NCBI GenBank assembly: GCA_964397195.1
Contig: CAYNGY010000005.1
Coordinates: forward strand, 685 to 64,684
Source: an uncultured Gammaproteobacteria bacterium
GTDB taxonomy: Bacteria > Patescibacteriota > Patescibacteriia > SBBC01 > CAIJZX01
Direction of reading: 5' to 3'
Length of the DNA: 64,000 nt
Of the stretch, positions 1 through 17,343 are shown in pieces. Each line of letters begins with the position of its first letter. Position 1 is the stretch's first letter. The notes beneath the pieces were generated by a model. The model ran no database searches. It saw only the letters and a list, made by a program, of their open reading frames with translations, and was not told where the DNA came from. Made by a program: the position numbers and the translations under genes.

Positions 1-1377
<1,377 letters not shown>

Positions 1378-1745
1378 AGGGAGTACTCAGCTGCCGTTTT
1401 GACGGCACAGAGTCACAGTATTGTCGGTGTACGTACATACTGTACGATCGATGTCCTTCGGGATATCGAACAAGACCTAGATGGTCGCGTTCAATCCAAT
1501 GCCTCATGATCTCCGGAACTTGTTTCCGGACGTATCGTGAACAGGATCGAACTAGGCATCGTGAAACGATGCATACAACAGTTGCCGAGACTGTCTTCTC
1601 GGCAAAAACCCGCGGCCTTCTGATCACATTTTGACGGTTCTCTCTCGCACGGCGCACGACGCGCCTGTTTTGTGTATTTACGTAGTCTCGGAATACGGCA
1701 AAAACCATTTTTGCTCTGCGCTGAACGTGGTATCCTTCCAAGTAT

Positions 1746-1946
1746 ATGGGAATCACGATTGCACTCTACGGACTAGCCGCATTTTGTTTTATCCATATTA
1801 TTCGGGACATCCTCCAAATTAACGGCGTGAAGAATTGGTTTACGGAGTTTGGCCATTTTTGGCACGCACCACAATACGAAAAACACGGCATGGCGATTCT
1901 CTTCATCATCGGCGCGACCTGTCTGTGGGTGGCGATTGGGCGATAA
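1746..1946 (+). CDS. small hydrophobic (2-TM) hypothetical protein, 66 aa
   Basis: ORF with two hydrophobic stretches (IALYGLAAFCFIHII / AILFIIGATCLWVAI). No recognisable family; lies in the region between the 16S and tRNA-Ile. Confidence 0.3.
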   Translation: MGITIALYGLAAFCFIHIIRDILQINGVKNWFTEFGHFWHAPQYEKHGMAILFIIGATCLWVAIGR

Positions 1947-1979
1947 AAACCCGCGCCGGCTCTACTGAGCGGGCGCGGT
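1941..1979 (-). terminator. intrinsic terminator (stem CCGCGCC.../...GGCGCGG, then GUUUUUAUCG on the minus strand)
   Basis: GC-rich imperfect hairpin at 1951-1979 spanning the stop of the minus-strand ORF, followed on the minus strand by T5. Sits between the convergent ORFs 1746-1946 and 1962-2483. Confidence 0.4.
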
Positions 1980-2483
1980 CATGACGCGAGGGCGATCGGG
2001 TGGTTCGGGGCGCGTGCGAGCCCAGATCCAGAGCGTGGCTGGCCAGTTGAGGATGCGTCGCATCCACGACTCGACGCTGTTGAGCTCCAGCCGAATCGGA
2101 ATGATCATAGCGTTCGGGAAGTATCGCGAGAAGACGATCCGCACGCGATCTTGGGTCGTCCAATTGCAGGCGACAACGACGGTTTGGTACCGATCACCGA
2201 GACGCGCGTCGAACTCCCGGACCGTGGCCACAAATGAGTCGCGTGGAATGACCACGTGGGCGACGAGGTCCTCGCCACCGAAAAGCTGGCGGGTATTGAT
2301 GATGAGCGAACCGATGGCGGCGATGCGATCGTAACGACCGGCGTCAGCCATGAACCACACCGGCACGCTATCGTACGTCAGCAGGTGATCACCGACCGCA
2401 ATCCGAAGAAAATGGAAACGGTTTTGCCGCTGCACAACCACCGGATCGGCGATCACGACAATATGGGTAAGGTGCTTGGGCAT
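1962..2483 (-). CDS. hypothetical protein, 173 aa (no family recognised)
   Basis: Long ORF on the minus strand; the overlapping plus-strand ORF 1981-2334 translates to low-complexity junk. Followed on its own strand by a hairpin plus U-run (1941-1979). Confidence 0.45.
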   Translation of the reverse strand: MPKHLTHIVVIADPVVVQRQNRFHFLRIAVGDHLLTYDSVPVWFMADAGRYDRIAAIGSLIINTRQLFGGEDLVAHVVIPRDSFVATVREFDARLGDRYQTVVVACNWTTQDRVRIVFSRYFPNAMIIPIRLELNSVESWMRRILNWPATLWIWARTRPEPPDRPRVMTAPAQ

Positions 2484-2610
2484 GGGCCCCTCCTTTTCAG
2501 ATGAGAGCCACTCTCATGTAGAGGCTACGTCGGGGACGAGCAACCGTCAAGGCAACTTTGTCTTTATCGCCCCCGAAGAGTACAATACCCCTATAGAAGG
2601 AGAAAACCCT

Positions 2611-3246
2611 ATGAACAAAGCGTATATCGGCCTTATCCTCGCCATCAGCCTCGTCGCCTTTGGCGCCGGGTGCGGAAAGAAGGCGATTGAGAATGTTAAT
2701 GACGAATCCATTGTGAATCAAGGGTTTGATTTGAATGACGCCCTAGATTTAAACGTGTCTGAGGTTGAGAATACGAATGTCGATGTGAATGAAAACACCA
2801 ATTCGGACCTGGCAACAAATACGAATGAATCGGTGGCAACGAATGAGAACACCAACGCAGTGACTAACTCGTCCGTCAGCAATAAGAACACGAACACGGC
2901 GACAGCTACCGGTACCATTGCCATCACCTCCCCGGCCAGCGACGATGAGCTGGTATCACCATTCTATGTTGAAGGCACGGCCTCGAGCGGTAGTCTCGTC
3001 TATGTACGGCTCAAAGCGAGCGGCGTGACCATCTTTACCGAAAAAGTGTCGGTCAAAAACGGGGCTTTTAAAGGAAAACTCCTTTTCGACTTCTCACGTA
3101 CAACAAATGGCACCATCGACGTCTTCCAAAAGAACGCCGACGAAGAGGAAGTGAATCTCACCAGTGTTGATGTGCGGTTCAAGTTGTCGAGTACGAACAC
3201 GAATGCTGCAGCCAACAGCAACACGAATACGAACACCAACCTCTAA
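2611..3246 (+). CDS. secreted/lipoprotein with Asn/Thr-rich low-complexity linker and C-terminal Ig-like (Gmad2-like) domain
   Basis: ATG at 2611 preceded by GAAGGAG 8 nt upstream. N-terminus MNKAYIGLILAISLVAFGAGCGKK has a signal peptide plus Cys lipobox-like motif. Repetitive NENTN/TNTN segment, then IAITSPASDDELVSPFYVEGTASS... beta-rich domain. The track ORF 2476-3246 carries a spurious N-terminal extension. Confidence 0.6.
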   Translation: MNKAYIGLILAISLVAFGAGCGKKAIENVNDESIVNQGFDLNDALDLNVSEVENTNVDVNENTNSDLATNTNESVATNENTNAVTNSSVSNKNTNTATATGTIAITSPASDDELVSPFYVEGTASSGSLVYVRLKASGVTIFTEKVSVKNGAFKGKLLFDFSRTTNGTIDVFQKNADEEEVNLTSVDVRFKLSSTNTNAAANSNTNTNTNL

Positions 3247-3288
3247 CACCCACCCGAAAACACCCTGTGCCCAGCGTACGGGGTGTTT

Positions 3289-4581
3289 TTATTCTGATCG
3301 CGCTGTCCGAATGTCGACCCGTGAAAACCCCGACCAGTTATTGTCGACGAATCCGTCGTACTGTCCAGCCGACCAGACAACTCGGCCCGTTGGATCGTTT
3401 TGAACATATTGCGGACGGAAATTGTCTCGACCGGAGTTTCGCGTGATTTGCTGACGTCGTTTCCAGCCCTGATTGTTTTTTGACCAGATCTCAATCTCCT
3501 TGGTTGAACGCTGCGCGCTGAGCACGACTCGCTGGATATCGCGCGGGTCGATGACAATGCCGCCGGCATAAAAATGGGTGGCGCCGTACAATAGTGTTGT
3601 GTCGATGATGTGCTCGGCACGCCAAGCACCATCCTGGACACTGGCGTATCCGTACCACGTGCGACCGGCCTCCGATTGAACATACGTCATCGCTGGCACG
3701 CCGTCAGAAGAGATAACAACGTCCCAGATATAGAGCGCTTCATCATTGGTAACAATAGCCTCCGCATTCTCCGCCCGTGCCGGGAGTACTTGCAAAGACC
3801 GGTTCGACTGATGCCAGCTGGTGCCGCCGTCATCGCTCGACATATAGTACAACCCTTTCGGACGACCCCCGTTTGGTCGAGTACTCCACGCCAAGTCTAG
3901 ACGATTTTCTTTTTGGCTCACCAGCGCATAAACCCCGAATGATGCGCCAAAAGAGATGAGCGTGGTCGGCGCGCCCCACGACCGTCCGGCATCCGCGGAC
4001 GTCGTCATGATTTCTGCGCTTTGGCGCCAGTTTCCACGTCGAAGAAAGAGTGCGATGTCGCCCGAGGGCAGGCGTTTTGCTTGCGGATAATCATATTCTG
4101 CATCGGTACCGGTAAAGATCGGCGTCCACGGGGTCCATGAGTTCATATCTTCCGGCGTGCCCATGCGCTGGACACCAATCGCATCGTGAACATCGTGGAT
4201 GGCGGTAAAAACAAGCAACGTACCATCGGGGAGCATGAGCACTGACGGCCCATTATGATCATCAATCGCGTCTTCCCCGAACGTCTTTTTCGCATCAAAA
4301 ATATTTACCGGCGGTAACCAGGCATTTTGACCGTGGTCGAATGCGCGGAGTACTACCTGACCGTCATGCGAGATCCACGTTACGTACGTCCGATCGTATT
4401 GGCCCTTAAAACGAACTGCGGCTGGCTTCTGGAACCACTCAAAAATACCTTGCGATCCAATTCGATCACCATTCTCCCGCTGCCAGGCGTTCGCCGTCAC
4501 TAAAACGCCAATGGCGAGAACGAGGAGAACGGGGATGCGCCAACGCCAAAAAAACATGTCTACAGGATAGCACGCTTTCAC
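3289..4581 (-). CDS. BNR/Asp-box repeat (sialidase-like beta-propeller) exported protein
   Basis: Asp-box motifs S-x-D-x-G-x-T/S-W are present (TSADAGRSWG, SSDDGGTSWH). N-terminal hydrophobic segment RIPVLLVLAIGVLVTANA. Paralog of the next gene, sharing the block FEWFQKPAAVR. Confidence 0.65.
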   Translation of the reverse strand: MKACYPVDMFFWRWRIPVLLVLAIGVLVTANAWQRENGDRIGSQGIFEWFQKPAAVRFKGQYDRTYVTWISHDGQVVLRAFDHGQNAWLPPVNIFDAKKTFGEDAIDDHNGPSVLMLPDGTLLVFTAIHDVHDAIGVQRMGTPEDMNSWTPWTPIFTGTDAEYDYPQAKRLPSGDIALFLRRGNWRQSAEIMTTSADAGRSWGAPTTLISFGASFGVYALVSQKENRLDLAWSTRPNGGRPKGLYYMSSDDGGTSWHQSNRSLQVLPARAENAEAIVTNDEALYIWDVVISSDGVPAMTYVQSEAGRTWYGYASVQDGAWRAEHIIDTTLLYGATHFYAGGIVIDPRDIQRVVLSAQRSTKEIEIWSKNNQGWKRRQQITRNSGRDNFRPQYVQNDPTGRVVWSAGQYDGFVDNNWSGFSRVDIRTARSE

Positions 4582-4590
4582 TGTCTCAGC

Positions 4591-5853
4591 TTATTTTAGG
4601 GTCGTGGTGCGAATGGTCATCCGCGTATACCCGGTCCAATTTCCATTTACTAACCCGTCATATACACCGGCCGACCAGATGATGCGTCCGGATGGATCGT
4701 TTTGAACGAATTGTGGTCGGACATTAATGCGACCGGATTTATTTGTGACAACGCGTTCATGCCGCCATCCCCAACGAGACCTCGTATAGGTTGAAAGTTC
4801 GAGACGCGGCGAGACGCGGCTAACGAGGACGCGGTCTGGGTTGCGCGGATCAAAAACGATGCCGCCCGCATAATAGTGCGTTCGTCCATAAAAAAGTCCG
4901 GCGCCAGTGACCGTTTCACTCCGCCAGTGACCACCGATGTACCGGCTCACCACATAGCGCGTTTTCTTGCCGTCGCCAGTAACGAATGCTACCCGCGGAC
5001 TACCAGCAACTGCGCCCGTCACATCCCACACATACGTTGGATCCGGGCTGGAATAGACGACTTCGCTGGCGGCTCGTGTGATTGGGAGCGCGTATCTCTG
5101 TCCGCTCATTTTTTGCCACGTCACACCGCCGTCAAGACTTCGGGCAAAATAGATATTCGTGGGGCGACCATTCCCGGCACGTCGACTCCACGCCAGGTCG
5201 AACCGACTCCCGTGGGCATCGATGACCGCGTAGATGCCGATGTCCTGTCCAAAGCGAATCAGCGTCGTTGGTGTCGACCAGGAATGTCCGCCGTCCGTCG
5301 ATCGAAGGATGGCTTCGGTGGCACCAGCCCAGCTGCCACGGCGGACAAACAAGACGATGGTGCCGTCGGAGAGTAATTTCGCCTGAGGGTAATTGAACGA
5401 GGCGGCCGGTTCGACGCTTGAGATACGGATGCGGTCTGACCACGCGGAGACATCTCCGGGCGCCGTCATAACCTTGGCGAAGAGATTGTTGGGAATATCG
5501 TGGACGGCGTAAAAAATCATGATTCGACCGTCGGCGAGGGCCAGTAGGGACGGGGCGTTATGATCATCCCGACCTTCTATACCGAAAGAACTCGCCAGAT
5601 CATCAATGGTGACCACGCCGCCCCAGGCGCCTCGCGCGTTATCTCGAGCACGGAGCTGAATTTGGCCAGCGGCGTTTATCCAGCTGACGTAGGTCATATC
5701 AGTGGGGCGAGTGACACGAACTGCGGCTGGTTTCTGGAACCACTCAAAAACTCCATTTGCGGCGAGGAGATTACCGGCCGCCGTTTTAGCCTGCGCACCA
5801 AACGGGACAAGAAACAATGCCCCGACGACCAGAAAAACGATGGACTTCCTCAT
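4591..5853 (-). CDS. BNR/Asp-box repeat exported protein (paralog of 3289-4581)
   Basis: Asp-box motifs STDGGHSWSTP and SLDGGVTWQ. Signal peptide MRKSIVFLVVGALFLVPFGAQA. True start is the ATG at ~5853; the track's longer ORF (to 6189) reads through the tRNA-Ile region (GIEPGTSSLSV... is antisense tRNA). Confidence 0.65.
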   Translation of the reverse strand: MRKSIVFLVVGALFLVPFGAQAKTAAGNLLAANGVFEWFQKPAAVRVTRPTDMTYVSWINAAGQIQLRARDNARGAWGGVVTIDDLASSFGIEGRDDHNAPSLLALADGRIMIFYAVHDIPNNLFAKVMTAPGDVSAWSDRIRISSVEPAASFNYPQAKLLSDGTIVLFVRRGSWAGATEAILRSTDGGHSWSTPTTLIRFGQDIGIYAVIDAHGSRFDLAWSRRAGNGRPTNIYFARSLDGGVTWQKMSGQRYALPITRAASEVVYSSPDPTYVWDVTGAVAGSPRVAFVTGDGKKTRYVVSRYIGGHWRSETVTGAGLFYGRTHYYAGGIVFDPRNPDRVLVSRVSPRLELSTYTRSRWGWRHERVVTNKSGRINVRPQFVQNDPSGRIIWSAGVYDGLVNGNWTGYTRMTIRTTTLK

Positions 5854-5927
5854 AGCGGATAGTATAGCAGAGTCTCTTGGGCCTTGCTTTCTCCGCCGGA
5901 ATTTGGTAGCGTGGATGAGCTCAAATT

Positions 5928-5947
5928 GGGCGTGTAGCTCAGATGGG
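5928..5947 (+). repeat. 20-nt direct repeat copying the 5' end of tRNA-Ile (GGGCGTGTAGCTCAGATGG)
   Basis: Identical 19-20 nt to 6052-6071, but the following sequence has no D/anticodon/T arms, so it is a partial duplicate, not a tRNA. Confidence 0.6.
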
Positions 5948-6051
5948 CCGAGTCCACAAGCGACACCAACTGCTTGGTGCCGCGCGGGACGAGGCGGGCG
6001 ACCCGATGTTCCGCGAGGAACCGGGGCGCCCCGGAACTTCACATATGATAC

Positions 6052-6128
6052 GGGCGTGTAGCTCAGATGGTTAGAGCGCGTCACTGATAATGACGAGGTC
6101 CCTGGTTCGATTCCAGGCACGCCCACCA
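6052..6128 (+). tRNA. tRNA-Ile (anticodon GAT)
   Basis: Cloverleaf readable: GGGCGTGTAGCTCAGATGGTTAGAGCGCGTCACTGATAATGACGAGGTCCCTGGTTCGATTCCAGGCACGCCCACCA. Anticodon loop CTGATAA gives GAU; T-loop GGTTCGATTCC; encoded CCA. Confidence 0.85.
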
Positions 6129-6148
6129 AGAAATCAATCGTTGAAGCT

Positions 6149-6631
6149 ATGTCCACGACTGCGGTGCGGATCAGAGCGGCGGCAATCATGCCGCATCAGG
6201 ACAACATATTACTCATGCACCGCCTCAACCGTGGCCAAGAGTATTTTGTTTTTCCAGGCGGTGGGGTTGAGGAGAACGAGACCATTGAACACGCGGTTCT
6301 ACGTGAAGTATTGGAGGAAACTACAATTAACGCGGAGATCGAGAAGCTCATCTATCACCATGTTTACGACAATGGGTCCGAGCAGTATTACTACCTATGC
6401 CGGTATGTTCGGGGTACTCCTAAGCTCGGGGAGGCAAATGAATCTGCGTCGATGGCTCGAGGTGATGATCAATTTTTCGAGCCGGCGTGGTACCCGATTT
6501 CTTCAATATCACACATGCTTCTTTATCCGCTCGAAATCCGTGACTGGCTCATCGCCGACCTAGCACGTGGATTCCCGGCCACTCCAAGAAGTGCCTCATA
6601 TCGGATTGCCGACTTGCGGCAGTCACTATAA
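6149..6631 (+). CDS. NUDIX hydrolase
   Basis: Nudix box GGGVEENETIEHAVLREVLEETT (GX5EX7REUXEEXGU). Confidence 0.8.
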   Translation: MSTTAVRIRAAAIMPHQDNILLMHRLNRGQEYFVFPGGGVEENETIEHAVLREVLEETTINAEIEKLIYHHVYDNGSEQYYYLCRYVRGTPKLGEANESASMARGDDQFFEPAWYPISSISHMLLYPLEIRDWLIADLARGFPATPRSASYRIADLRQSL

Positions 6632-17268: not shown

Positions 17269-17343
17269 CGGCCTCATCGTCTAACGGTTAGGACATCGGC
17301 TTTTCAAGCCGGTAATCGGGGTTCGATTCCCCGTGGGGCTACC
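17269..17343 (+). tRNA. tRNA-Glu (anticodon TTC)
   Basis: GGCCTCATCGTCTAACGGTTAGGACATCGGCTTTTCAAGCCGGTAATCGGGGTTCGATTCCCCGTGGGGCTACCA. Aligns with bacterial tRNA-Glu; anticodon loop TTTTCAA gives UUC; encoded CCA; acceptor stem has two G-U pairs. Confidence 0.8.

Follow-up and report, generated by a model that had tools for sequence, protein, structure and literature searches.

Where a partial copy of a tRNA gene lies beside an intact one, it has been explained as a remnant of the integration of a genetic element (van der Gulik et al. 2023). Archaea and C. merolae are known to have tRNA genes that are interrupted, split or endowed with several introns, as well as tRNA introns that transpose. 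Here we describe a bacterial locus that recalls both. It lies in a 64,000-nt stretch of contig CAYNGY010000005.1 (GenBank assembly GCA_964397195.1; the whole stretch is called the window, and its coordinates are used throughout), in which an intact tRNA-Ile(GAT) gene (6052–6128, plus strand) is preceded on the same strand by an exact copy of its own first 19 nt, the ghost (5928–5946), and by an 89-nt structured element, X (5947–6035). We found that the 19-nt repeat is the 5' fragment of a second, disrupted tRNA-Ile copy fused to this folded element, and that X belongs to a family occupying the same D-loop position in disrupted copies of tRNA-Ile, tRNA-Val and tRNA-Thr; the intact tRNA of that isoacceptor is found upstream or downstream of such a copy or enclosed by it. 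The reading that we favor, at a probability of roughly one half, is that small non-coding insertion elements that depend on their structure enter tRNA loops, and that recombination takes place between tRNA genes and their fragments.

Like integration-derived fragments, the window has a partial tRNA copy near an intact gene and a direct repeat, but the copy is the 5' part of the gene (nt 1–19) and not the 3' part, just 105 nt are enclosed, no integrase is present, the enclosed DNA is a conserved folded element and the junction has no match in viral contigs. With the interrupted genes of Archaea and C. merolae, the elements described here share insertions that affect D-, anticodon- and T-loop within a single gene, insertions common to different tRNA species and exons that reassemble to a cloverleaf; they differ in their bacterial host, in the lack of any visible bulge–helix–bulge (BHB) motif and in that an intact copy, sometimes nested in the anticodon-loop insertion, always accompanies them (one 2-kb contig, described below, apart), and their splicing is putative. 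Bacterial tRNA introns are, to our knowledge, group I introns. Those in tRNA anticodon loops likewise place an intervening sequence in a bacterial tRNA gene, but here the group I model (RF00028) has no match over the element, the insertions measure 60–110 nt and not at least 200 nt, and D- and T-loop sites are used. A further parallel is offered by the intervening sequences (IVS) of rRNA, which are removed by RNase III and which are also small helical insertions that replace a loop of a stable RNA gene, occur sporadically and are found in the same lineage. Many insertions are reported for rRNA of the Candidate Phyla Radiation (CPR) (Brown 2015; Tsurumaki 2022, as cited). The host gene here is a tRNA, whose function fragmentation would destroy, and the covariance model that we built for X (R1) finds no copy of it in the rRNA segments of the loci.

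Finally, in the tRNA-linked repeats (TLRs) of E. coli tRNA operons, 18–19 nt of a tRNA end recur in the sequence that flanks tRNA genes, as in the window; in the best-known example, tyrT, the copies are of the 3' end and lie in distal spacers, and we know of no conserved structured companion element for TLRs. None of these systems is a bacterial, protein-less, structured insertion of 60–110 nt at G19 of the D-loop with an accompanying or nested intact gene. A tRNA duplicate has thus led to a conserved RNA-like fold outside Rfam and to tRNA genes of bacteria that carry interruptions in each of the three loops and, in some genomes, enclose an intact copy of themselves. Group I introns aside, the disruption of tRNA genes is, as far as we know, regarded as an archaeal and eukaryotic phenomenon. 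In the literature we found no description of nested, split or fragmented CPR tRNAs or of an X-like element, in a search that also took in TLRs and tRNA leader motifs but was incomplete and may have missed an earlier description; the X family is apparently undescribed.

A tRNA-Ile fragment fused to a folded element

The sequence GGGCGTGTAGCTCAGATGG occurs exactly twice in the window, at 5928–5946 and 6052–6070, even when two mismatches are allowed, against an expectation of zero from 100 shuffles. An earlier, sequence-only reading of this DNA had reported a duplicate of 20 nt at these two places; the two copies stand, but the repeat is 19 nt long, as the bases on both flanks differ between them. 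The upstream copy corresponds to the acceptor 5' strand, the D-stem 5' strand and the D-loop as far as G18G19, and the downstream copy opens the intact gene (ARAGORN; Rfam RF00005, 74.1 bits). Between X and the intact gene lies a 16-nt spacer (6036–6051), at a place where relatives carry the 3' strand of the D-stem, or 'exon 2' (TAGAGC...). The window reads ACTTCAC at this position, and three of the four D-stem pairs are broken, which is the case in the window row only of the alignment (A1). We ruled out a decayed tRNA-Ala as the source, because the 19 nt are the exact acceptor strand of tRNA-Ile and the ghosts of relatives carry a GAT anticodon arm.

The sequence-only reading had seen here the scar of a recombination or integration event at the 5' end of the tRNA. 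A rearrangement at the tRNA did take place, but the repeats are not the integration scar of the 4.7 kb that separate the tRNA from the upstream 16S rRNA gene, because they flank 105 nt only; moreover, Pfam, PHROGs and NCBIfam scans returned no integrase or transposase among the five proteins encoded in that interval or the flanking genes. The same reading had allowed that the upstream repeat might fold into a real intron-containing tRNA. Formally this holds, since 5928–6128 can be interpreted, and also folded, as a tRNA-Ile whose D-loop holds a 124-nt insertion; functionally it does not. Neither ARAGORN nor a permissive Rfam scan of 1376–6300 (E up to 10) detects a degenerate or intron-containing tRNA at 5928–6051, and the scan finds no tRNA, intron or other family there. 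In relatives, the element homologous to X simply interrupts the D-loop of tRNA-like copies that are complete in other respects, and we know of no splicing mechanism for such a D-loop element.

X itself consists of a stem P1, in which GCC/GGC and GUCC/GGAC stand on either side of tandem G·A pairs and enclose a hairpin with the loop AACUGCUU, a stem P2 (GGGCG...CGCCC) and a 3' end reading CCCCGGA. It aligns with the D-loop insertions of interrupted tRNA-Ile copies that lie downstream of the intact tRNA-Ile in L005 and L016 (L-numbers denote the genome contigs of relatives, or metagenome contigs, used for comparison), and also with insertions in tRNA-Val-like and tRNA-Thr-like copies on the metagenome contigs L116, L074, L096 and L125. 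The RNAalifold consensus comprises closure by the D-stem, a P1 of GYC/GRC around the tandem G·A pairs, a 9-bp hairpin with an invariant AACUGCUU loop that stays constant while its stems vary, P2 as in the window and a 3' end CCNGGA. Compensatory changes affect 18 of the 31 pairs predicted in this consensus. When the insertion is taken by itself, the share of paired cells is 96.2%, as compared with 71.9% in shuffles and no more than 44% in slid controls, and 19 of its 27 pairs are compensatory, a result that 0 of 500 shuffles reach; the window copy retains every pair of this fold.

R1 recovers X in the window at 93.9 bits (E 5e-17), a copy that was part of the model's training set, and its scores run from 77 to 99 bits, each match adjoining a fragment of a tRNA D-arm, whereas Rfam holds no family that matches X. 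Members of the family follow tRNA nt 8–19 (TAGCTCAGNTGG) and begin with GYCGAG, and the window conforms, with TAGCTCAGATGG followed by GCCGAG at 5935–5952; it departs from the family in that a D-stem with exon 2, (T)AGAGC, does not close its copy. The DNA between the repeats is therefore an evolutionarily conserved structured element that sits at the same tRNA position in other genomes. A derivation of X from the T-loop, acceptor 3' strand or trailer of the tRNA itself was rejected, as local alignments were no better than those of shuffles (66, 310 and 359 of 500 score as high), and so was a K-turn or BHB reading of GYCGAG...CGAGRC, which on inspection is a continuous helix with tandem G·A pairs and no 3-nt bulge.

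Given the shortness of the repeat and the break points that the de Bruijn graph of an independent assembly has in this region, one might suspect a trivial local duplication, slippage or an assembly artifact. However, that independent assembly (Logan contig L001) reproduces 1357–6081 at 100% identity, ghost included, and the arrangement is for this reason not an assembly error. Against a chance duplication stands further that the intervening sequence is structured and homologous to elements in other genomes, and that the break at nt 19 recurs in dozens of loci, 5' ghosts elsewhere ending almost always at this nucleotide (range 16–20). We consider such a trivial origin very improbable. The Logan contig ends at 1357 and at 6081, the latter exactly 30 nt into the tRNA, and the other break is also given as 11 nt past the end of the 16S gene; this implies that the sample holds other contexts with the same 16S end and the same 5' 30-mer of tRNA-Ile, from related strains or species.

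Interrupted and nested tRNA copies in other genomes

When we searched each relative for pieces of its own tRNA-Ile, ordered fragments appeared around the gene, as in L004 (5725–6180, minus strand). There, read along the strand of the tRNA, nt 1–19 are followed by a 61-nt insertion, nt 20–36, about 106 nt and a complete tRNA, after which come 38 nt, nt 37–48 (extending to nt 58 with two mismatches), about 108 nt and finally nt 61–77. This locus is a second tRNA copy whose D-, anticodon- and T-loops are each interrupted, the functional gene lying inside the anticodon-loop insertion. A distant Parcubacteria genome, L011 (1612–2060, minus strand), has the same nested design, and interrupted outer copies also surround an intact tRNA-Ile(GAT) or tRNA-Val in L006, L010, L033 and L101. 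The chained fragments score 65 and 53 against a shuffle maximum of 25. In L006, L010 and L033, the acceptor and T stems of the outer copy differ from those of the inner one by fully compensated changes. Once the insertions are removed in silico, ARAGORN calls the outer copies of L004, L011, L006 and L010 tRNA-Ile(GAT) and that of L033 tRNA-Val(CAC); the outer copy of L101 allows no unambiguous in silico splice. Pieces of the tRNA are far from universal, as the fragment search returned no ghost at all in many relatives (L015, L020, L002 and L009), and downstream of the window's own tRNA-Ile the search for its pieces found no 3' fragments.

A second type of insertion separates anticodon positions 35 and 36 in copies of tRNA-Ile and tRNA-Thr (L004, L006, L074 and L125). 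Its conserved ends can be written CCCGCCUGC...GG(C/U)GGGCAGG or CCCGCCUGC...GGCGGGCAGG, and it carries either a whole tRNA gene or, in L074, just 37 nt; a similar but less conserved anticodon-loop insertion is present in the tRNA-Val copies of L033 and L101. Mirror-image 3' ghosts occur as well: a segment from the T-loop to the 3' end of the tRNA is repeated about 120–140 nt downstream in L019 (around 1950–2100) and after a tRNA-Met in L117. Because an X-like element has left its 3' part just before the L019 ghost (...GCTACCCCGGA directly followed by TCGAGTCC), the X family would extend to T-loops too. On L055 (1715–1968, minus strand), two tandem tRNA-like genes each contain a D-loop insertion of about 46 nt and score 38 and 36 bits with RF00005, above the gathering cut-off; their anticodon loop is unusual, and this 2-kb contig carries no intact copy.

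Arrangements of this kind raise the question of whether X and its relatives in anticodon- and T-loops represent a new bacterial type of true intron, in which case the nested outer genes would be functional tRNAs. The confinement of the insertions to the three loops, the full cloverleaves that outer copies retain after in silico splicing, their compensated stems in L006, L010 and L033, and the tandem genes of L055 all agree with such a view, for which parallels exist in C. merolae, with its three-intron tRNA-Ile(UAU), and in the transposition of archaeal introns. Against it, an intact copy of the same isoacceptor adjoins in every other case examined closely, the junctions are imprecise in several cases and the window copy lacks exon 2. 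No BHB motif was seen by inspection, the junctions being a three-way junction and asymmetric single strands and not 3-nt bulges around a 4-bp helix, although no dedicated BHB search was run. A group I intron fits no better: Rfam (E up to 10) detects no group I core over 5928–6051, the element spans 89 nt, it occupies the D-loop and not the anticodon loop, and 60–110 nt is too small for known self-splicing introns. We regard functional introns as unlikely.

Reach across metagenomes and possible mechanisms

The junction that marks the family, TAGCTCAGNTGG followed by GYCGAG (search pattern TAGCTCAGNTGGGYCGAG), is present on at least 120 metagenome contigs, with a minority of the matches being chance matches in a protein gene. 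Among the matches listed, the 19-nt ghost is on about 45 contigs an exact copy of a tRNA located 91–174 nt downstream, and these tRNAs comprise Ala, Val, Ile(GAT and TAT), Thr, Pro, Trp, His, Gly, Met and Lys, that is, at least 10 specificities and at least 13 tRNA species. The same pattern has no match in 2.9 million viral contigs, on which ground we rejected a phage attP as its origin.

Upstream of many tRNA species, these contigs (L025–L144) carry a shorter unit, which we call class A: exact nt 1–19 of the tRNA, then GYCGAG, a hairpin and CGAGC, an A-rich run, an antisense segment, an AT-rich stretch and the tRNA itself (for example, at about 306–504 in L093 and at 125–301 in L047). A stem of at least 4 bp is formed by 72% of the hairpins, as compared with 2.7% in shuffles, and 24 distinct stems are represented. 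The antisense segment is complementary to tRNA nt 13–31 and covaries with the D-loop of each tRNA. Some loci consist of two or three tandem units, as in L117, and the identity can reach into an upstream promoter-like region.

Several of these features could also be expected if site-specific integrative elements aimed at the symmetric D-arm had left the partial copies behind as remnants of the attL/attR type, X being the leftover arm of such an element. Integrated elements are a known source of tRNA gene fragments, the GCTC...GAGC of the D-arm is an inverted repeat like the core site of a recombinase, and X starts with a D-arm-like half site, GYCGAG(C). Tandem units (L050, L117 and L119) resemble accretion, and in some units (L047 and L093) identity extends upstream of the tRNA. 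This explanation is weakened by the short distance between the repeats (105 nt here and 75–155 nt elsewhere), by the lack of an integrase, both in the insert of the window and around the other loci, by the absence of the junction from the viral contigs and by the compensatory evolution of the stems, which is not expected of arms that bind protein as double-stranded DNA. Known integrases, moreover, reportedly restore the 3' part of a tRNA gene and not its 5' part. Taken together, we judge integrative remnants improbable, if slightly less so than functional introns.

A stronger competitor holds that ghost and X form a functional cis-acting RNA (a leader, processing scaffold or regulator) that arose from a tRNA D-arm module and is co-transcribed with its cognate tRNA or made beside it; the ghost would compete with or replace the 5' strand of the tRNA, and X would be bound by a protein. 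Purifying selection on the fold (the 19 of 27 compensatory pairs), the constant AACUGCUU loop on variable stems, the usually exact match of ghost and tRNA across many species and the class A segments that covary with the D-loop are all points in its favor. In addition, the minimum free energy fold of 5920–6131 (−89.9 kcal/mol, z −3.0) pairs the acceptor strand of the ghost with the 3' strand of the tRNA while X folds as in the consensus, and the window tRNA has lost its link to the 16S promoter and so needs upstream signals of its own. Against it, the place of the module relative to the tRNA is not fixed: it lies upstream of the tRNA in the window, downstream of it in L005, L016 and L023 and nested in L004; multiple truncated copies in L116, L008 and L006 look like debris and not design; many relatives have no ghost; and no promoter or terminator signal rises above shuffles. 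We assign a functional RNA a minor though appreciable chance, the largest among the alternatives.

It is because of this variable position and these debris-like loci that we prefer insertion elements combined with recombination. Under this preferred reading, X would be one of a family of small, non-coding, structure-dependent elements, IVS-like, intron-like or akin to miniature inverted-repeat transposable elements, that enter D-, anticodon- and T-loops, and the disrupted copies would last only where an intact one lies next to them. A tRNA and its fragments could then undergo homologous recombination, which would reshuffle their order and regenerate exact ghosts, with crossing-over moving the ghost–X module upstream of, downstream of or around the gene. 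For example, a crossover within nt 8–19 between a tRNA and a downstream ghost of the L005 type would yield nt 1–19 joined to X. Such recombination may have produced the order ghost, X and tRNA seen in the window, and it probably adds to the plasticity of the whole locus. If the elements are mobile or spliced, they would be a bacterial equivalent of archaeal tRNA-intron transposition and would help to explain rearranged tRNA-proximal loci in tiny CPR genomes. For annotation, ghosts and interrupted copies confuse tRNA counts in metagenome-assembled genomes (MAGs).

Several observations weigh against this reading. The one sign of mobility is the occurrence of the same element family in different tRNA species and positions; we found no enzyme, no orthologous pair of empty and filled sites and no defined termini or rule of target duplication, and all-versus-all clustering of open reading frames (ORFs) from 36 loci gave no recurrent neighboring protein family. 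R1 detects a single copy of X in the 64 kb, and this copy may be a remnant in decay, as the 3' strand of the D-stem is missing from it. Imprecise exon junctions are common (L005, L060 and L010), and a functional RNA would account equally well for the strong purifying selection that acts on the fold and for ghosts that usually match their tRNA exactly. As for the hosts, T4SS_pilin genes on several of the metagenome contigs suggest, as a hint only, that these contigs also come from Patescibacteria. More tentatively, we consider it possible that Patescibacteria carry an undescribed family of protein-less, structure-conserved elements of 60–110 nt, with 5928–6035 as one member, that insert in D-, anticodon- and T-loops to give split and nested tRNA genes and that are either removed at the RNA level, as a new bacterial type of intron or processing, or mobilized by an enzyme.

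Host lineage and the 16S-to-tRNA-Ile interval

The window comes from the chromosome of a member of the Patescibacteria (CPR) that is related to Ca. Kerfeldbacteria. Its 16S rRNA gene (1–1375, plus strand; Rfam RF00177, 1323 bits, model positions 118–1533) has lost its 5' end at the window edge and is closest in identity to that of a Ca. Kerfeldbacteria MAG (L023, 96.3%), followed by relatives at 94.4%, 94.2%, 93.2% and 93.1%. Helix 45 (1330–1375) reads GCGUAGCGGAAGCUGUGC in place of the usual GUAGGGGAACCUGCGG, and its 31-mer matches 23 contigs of species-representative genomes, apparently all of them Patescibacteria, with Kerfeldbacteria, Azambacteria, Doudnabacteria, Saccharibacteria and Parcubacteria among the groups named; about half of these contigs are labeled 'uncultured Gammaproteobacteria' and look like mislabeled TPA MAGs. 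The remaining genes of the window are those of an ordinary chromosome, including Wzy-type ligases, a polysaccharide export protein, RuvB, TsaD and a class I aminoacyl-tRNA synthetase (ValRS-like).

The Rfam scan of the 64 kb placed tRNA matches at 6052–6125 and 17270–17341 and found no large-subunit rRNA, 5S rRNA or tRNA-Ala, including in the 62 kb that lie 3' of the 16S gene. As the sequence-only reading had it, 16S and tRNA-Ile(GAT) share a strand and stand 4.7 kb apart with five ORFs between them (Rfam, ARAGORN and the ORF list agree), and neither tRNA-Ala nor 23S follows. The exact distance is 4,676 nt, with three opposite-strand genes in between; the locus is thus not a canonical 16S–tRNA-Ile–tRNA-Ala–23S–5S operon, as 23S is absent within about 1.5 kb and tRNA-Ile and tRNA-Ala are not within a few hundred nucleotides. 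Unlinked 16S and 23S genes are typical of the CPR clade (Brewer et al. 2019/2020) and were found in 27 of 34 circularized CPR genomes, with protein genes in the spacers (Lui et al. 2021). The window agrees with this pattern in the lineage of its 16S gene, in a 16S–23S distance greater than 1.5–2 kb, with no 23S within 62 kb, and in the opposite-strand protein genes that follow 16S. Because unlinked rRNA is documented as typical of CPR, the missing 23S and tRNA-Ala are a trait of the lineage and not a local operon decay, which the sequence-only reading had offered as an alternative. The rRNA layout is ordinary for the lineage and already known; the published work covers the 16S–23S distance, whereas the variable interval between 16S and tRNA-Ile (0.2–5.6 kb, with inversions) and the tRNA fragments come from the present analysis. 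Elsewhere in Patescibacteria, group I introns lie in or near rRNA regions (L018 5478–5727 and L015 278–512), as does a group II intron domain match (L002 4834–4913).

Running Rfam and ARAGORN on the loci of 15 relatives, we found that this interval varies widely while the outer synteny stays constant, with 16S, tRNA-Ile and then Wzy on the opposite strand. Where the tRNA is on the 16S strand, the gaps measure 196, 305, 340 (L023), 415, 434 (L005), 616, 660, 1,806, 1,812, 2,769 (L019) and 2,811 (L016) nt, and where it is inverted, they measure 2,255, 3,600, 4,630 (L004) and 5,600 nt. A comparison of synteny with related genomes had been proposed along with the original claim, and it does reveal shorter spacers: because relatives with 93–96% 16S identity have tRNA-Ile 340 nt (L023) or 434 nt (L005) after 16S, the 4.7 kb of the window are a derived expansion. 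The contents of the spacer differ as well, with a pilin-like gene and a homolog of the window lipoprotein in L019, YdjM and a pilin-like gene in L016, three unrelated genes and YdjM in L004, and no genes in L005; the YdjM gene, which is within the spacer in L016 and L004, is downstream of the tRNA in the window. The interval from 16S to tRNA-Ile is a plastic locus that has been filled independently with 1.8–5.6 kb of differing accessory genes in some relatives, and the 4.7 kb of the window, with genes of envelope or glycan type, are one filling of a hot spot and not a recognizable element. The compositional deviation that had been suggested as a check did not appear (GC 0.547 in the insert and 0.556 in the rest of the window, with a tetranucleotide distance inside the window range), and on the strength of this native composition and the lack of mobility genes we rejected a foreign origin of the insert.

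The interval begins with a conserved 16S trailer (1376–1575, plus strand), likely a processing or spacer region, the first 120–200 nt after 16S being conserved with four relatives: blastn alignments run through 1497 in L004, to about 1575 in L016 and L013 and over 1470–1573 in L019. A putative terminator-like hairpin and T-run follow at 1651–1675 (plus strand; GGCGCACGACGCGCC, then TGTTTTGTGT), matched by a consensus scan. Next come an ORF for a hydrophobic protein of 66 aa (1746–1946, plus strand), which is also called as a gene on the Logan contig and has no family match in Pfam, PHROGs or NCBIfam, and one for a hypothetical protein of 173 aa (1962–2483, minus strand) that has no match in these databases and no homolog in the relatives' loci. 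The Asn/Thr-rich lipoprotein (2611–3246, plus strand, with the start corrected to 2611; lipobox AFGAGC) ends in a weak Gmad2-like domain (Pfam PF10648, E 0.0047, under the gathering cut-off), and its homolog in L019 (38.6% identity over 83 aa, E 2e-11) likewise lies between 16S and tRNA-Ile on the rRNA strand.

Two BNR_4 beta-propeller proteins (Pfam PF15892) are encoded on the minus strand by tandem paralogs that occupy 3289–5853 and are 41% identical, namely protein A (3289–4581, E 5e-25) and protein B (4591–5853, E 6e-29). Both weakly match the NCBIfam BT3686 alpha-L-rhamnosidase family, far under its cut-off. Protein B has a signal peptide, whose Met is its start, and a 532-aa ORF that runs on over the tRNA is an artifact. 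For protein B, the search gave eight further homologs at E ≤ 1e-20, all at most 50% identical, so that relatives of the BNR genes are few. A BNR_4 homolog with 38% identity to protein B is encoded in L145 (10001–11314) among phage structural genes (Mu-like gpT capsid), adjoining a LAGLIDADG-like ORF; this match to a phage-like contig is too weak to argue for a phage origin of the insert. On the right, the interval is bounded beyond the tRNA by a Nudix hydrolase gene (6149–6631, plus strand; Pfam PF00293, E 8e-15), which starts 20 nt after the tRNA.

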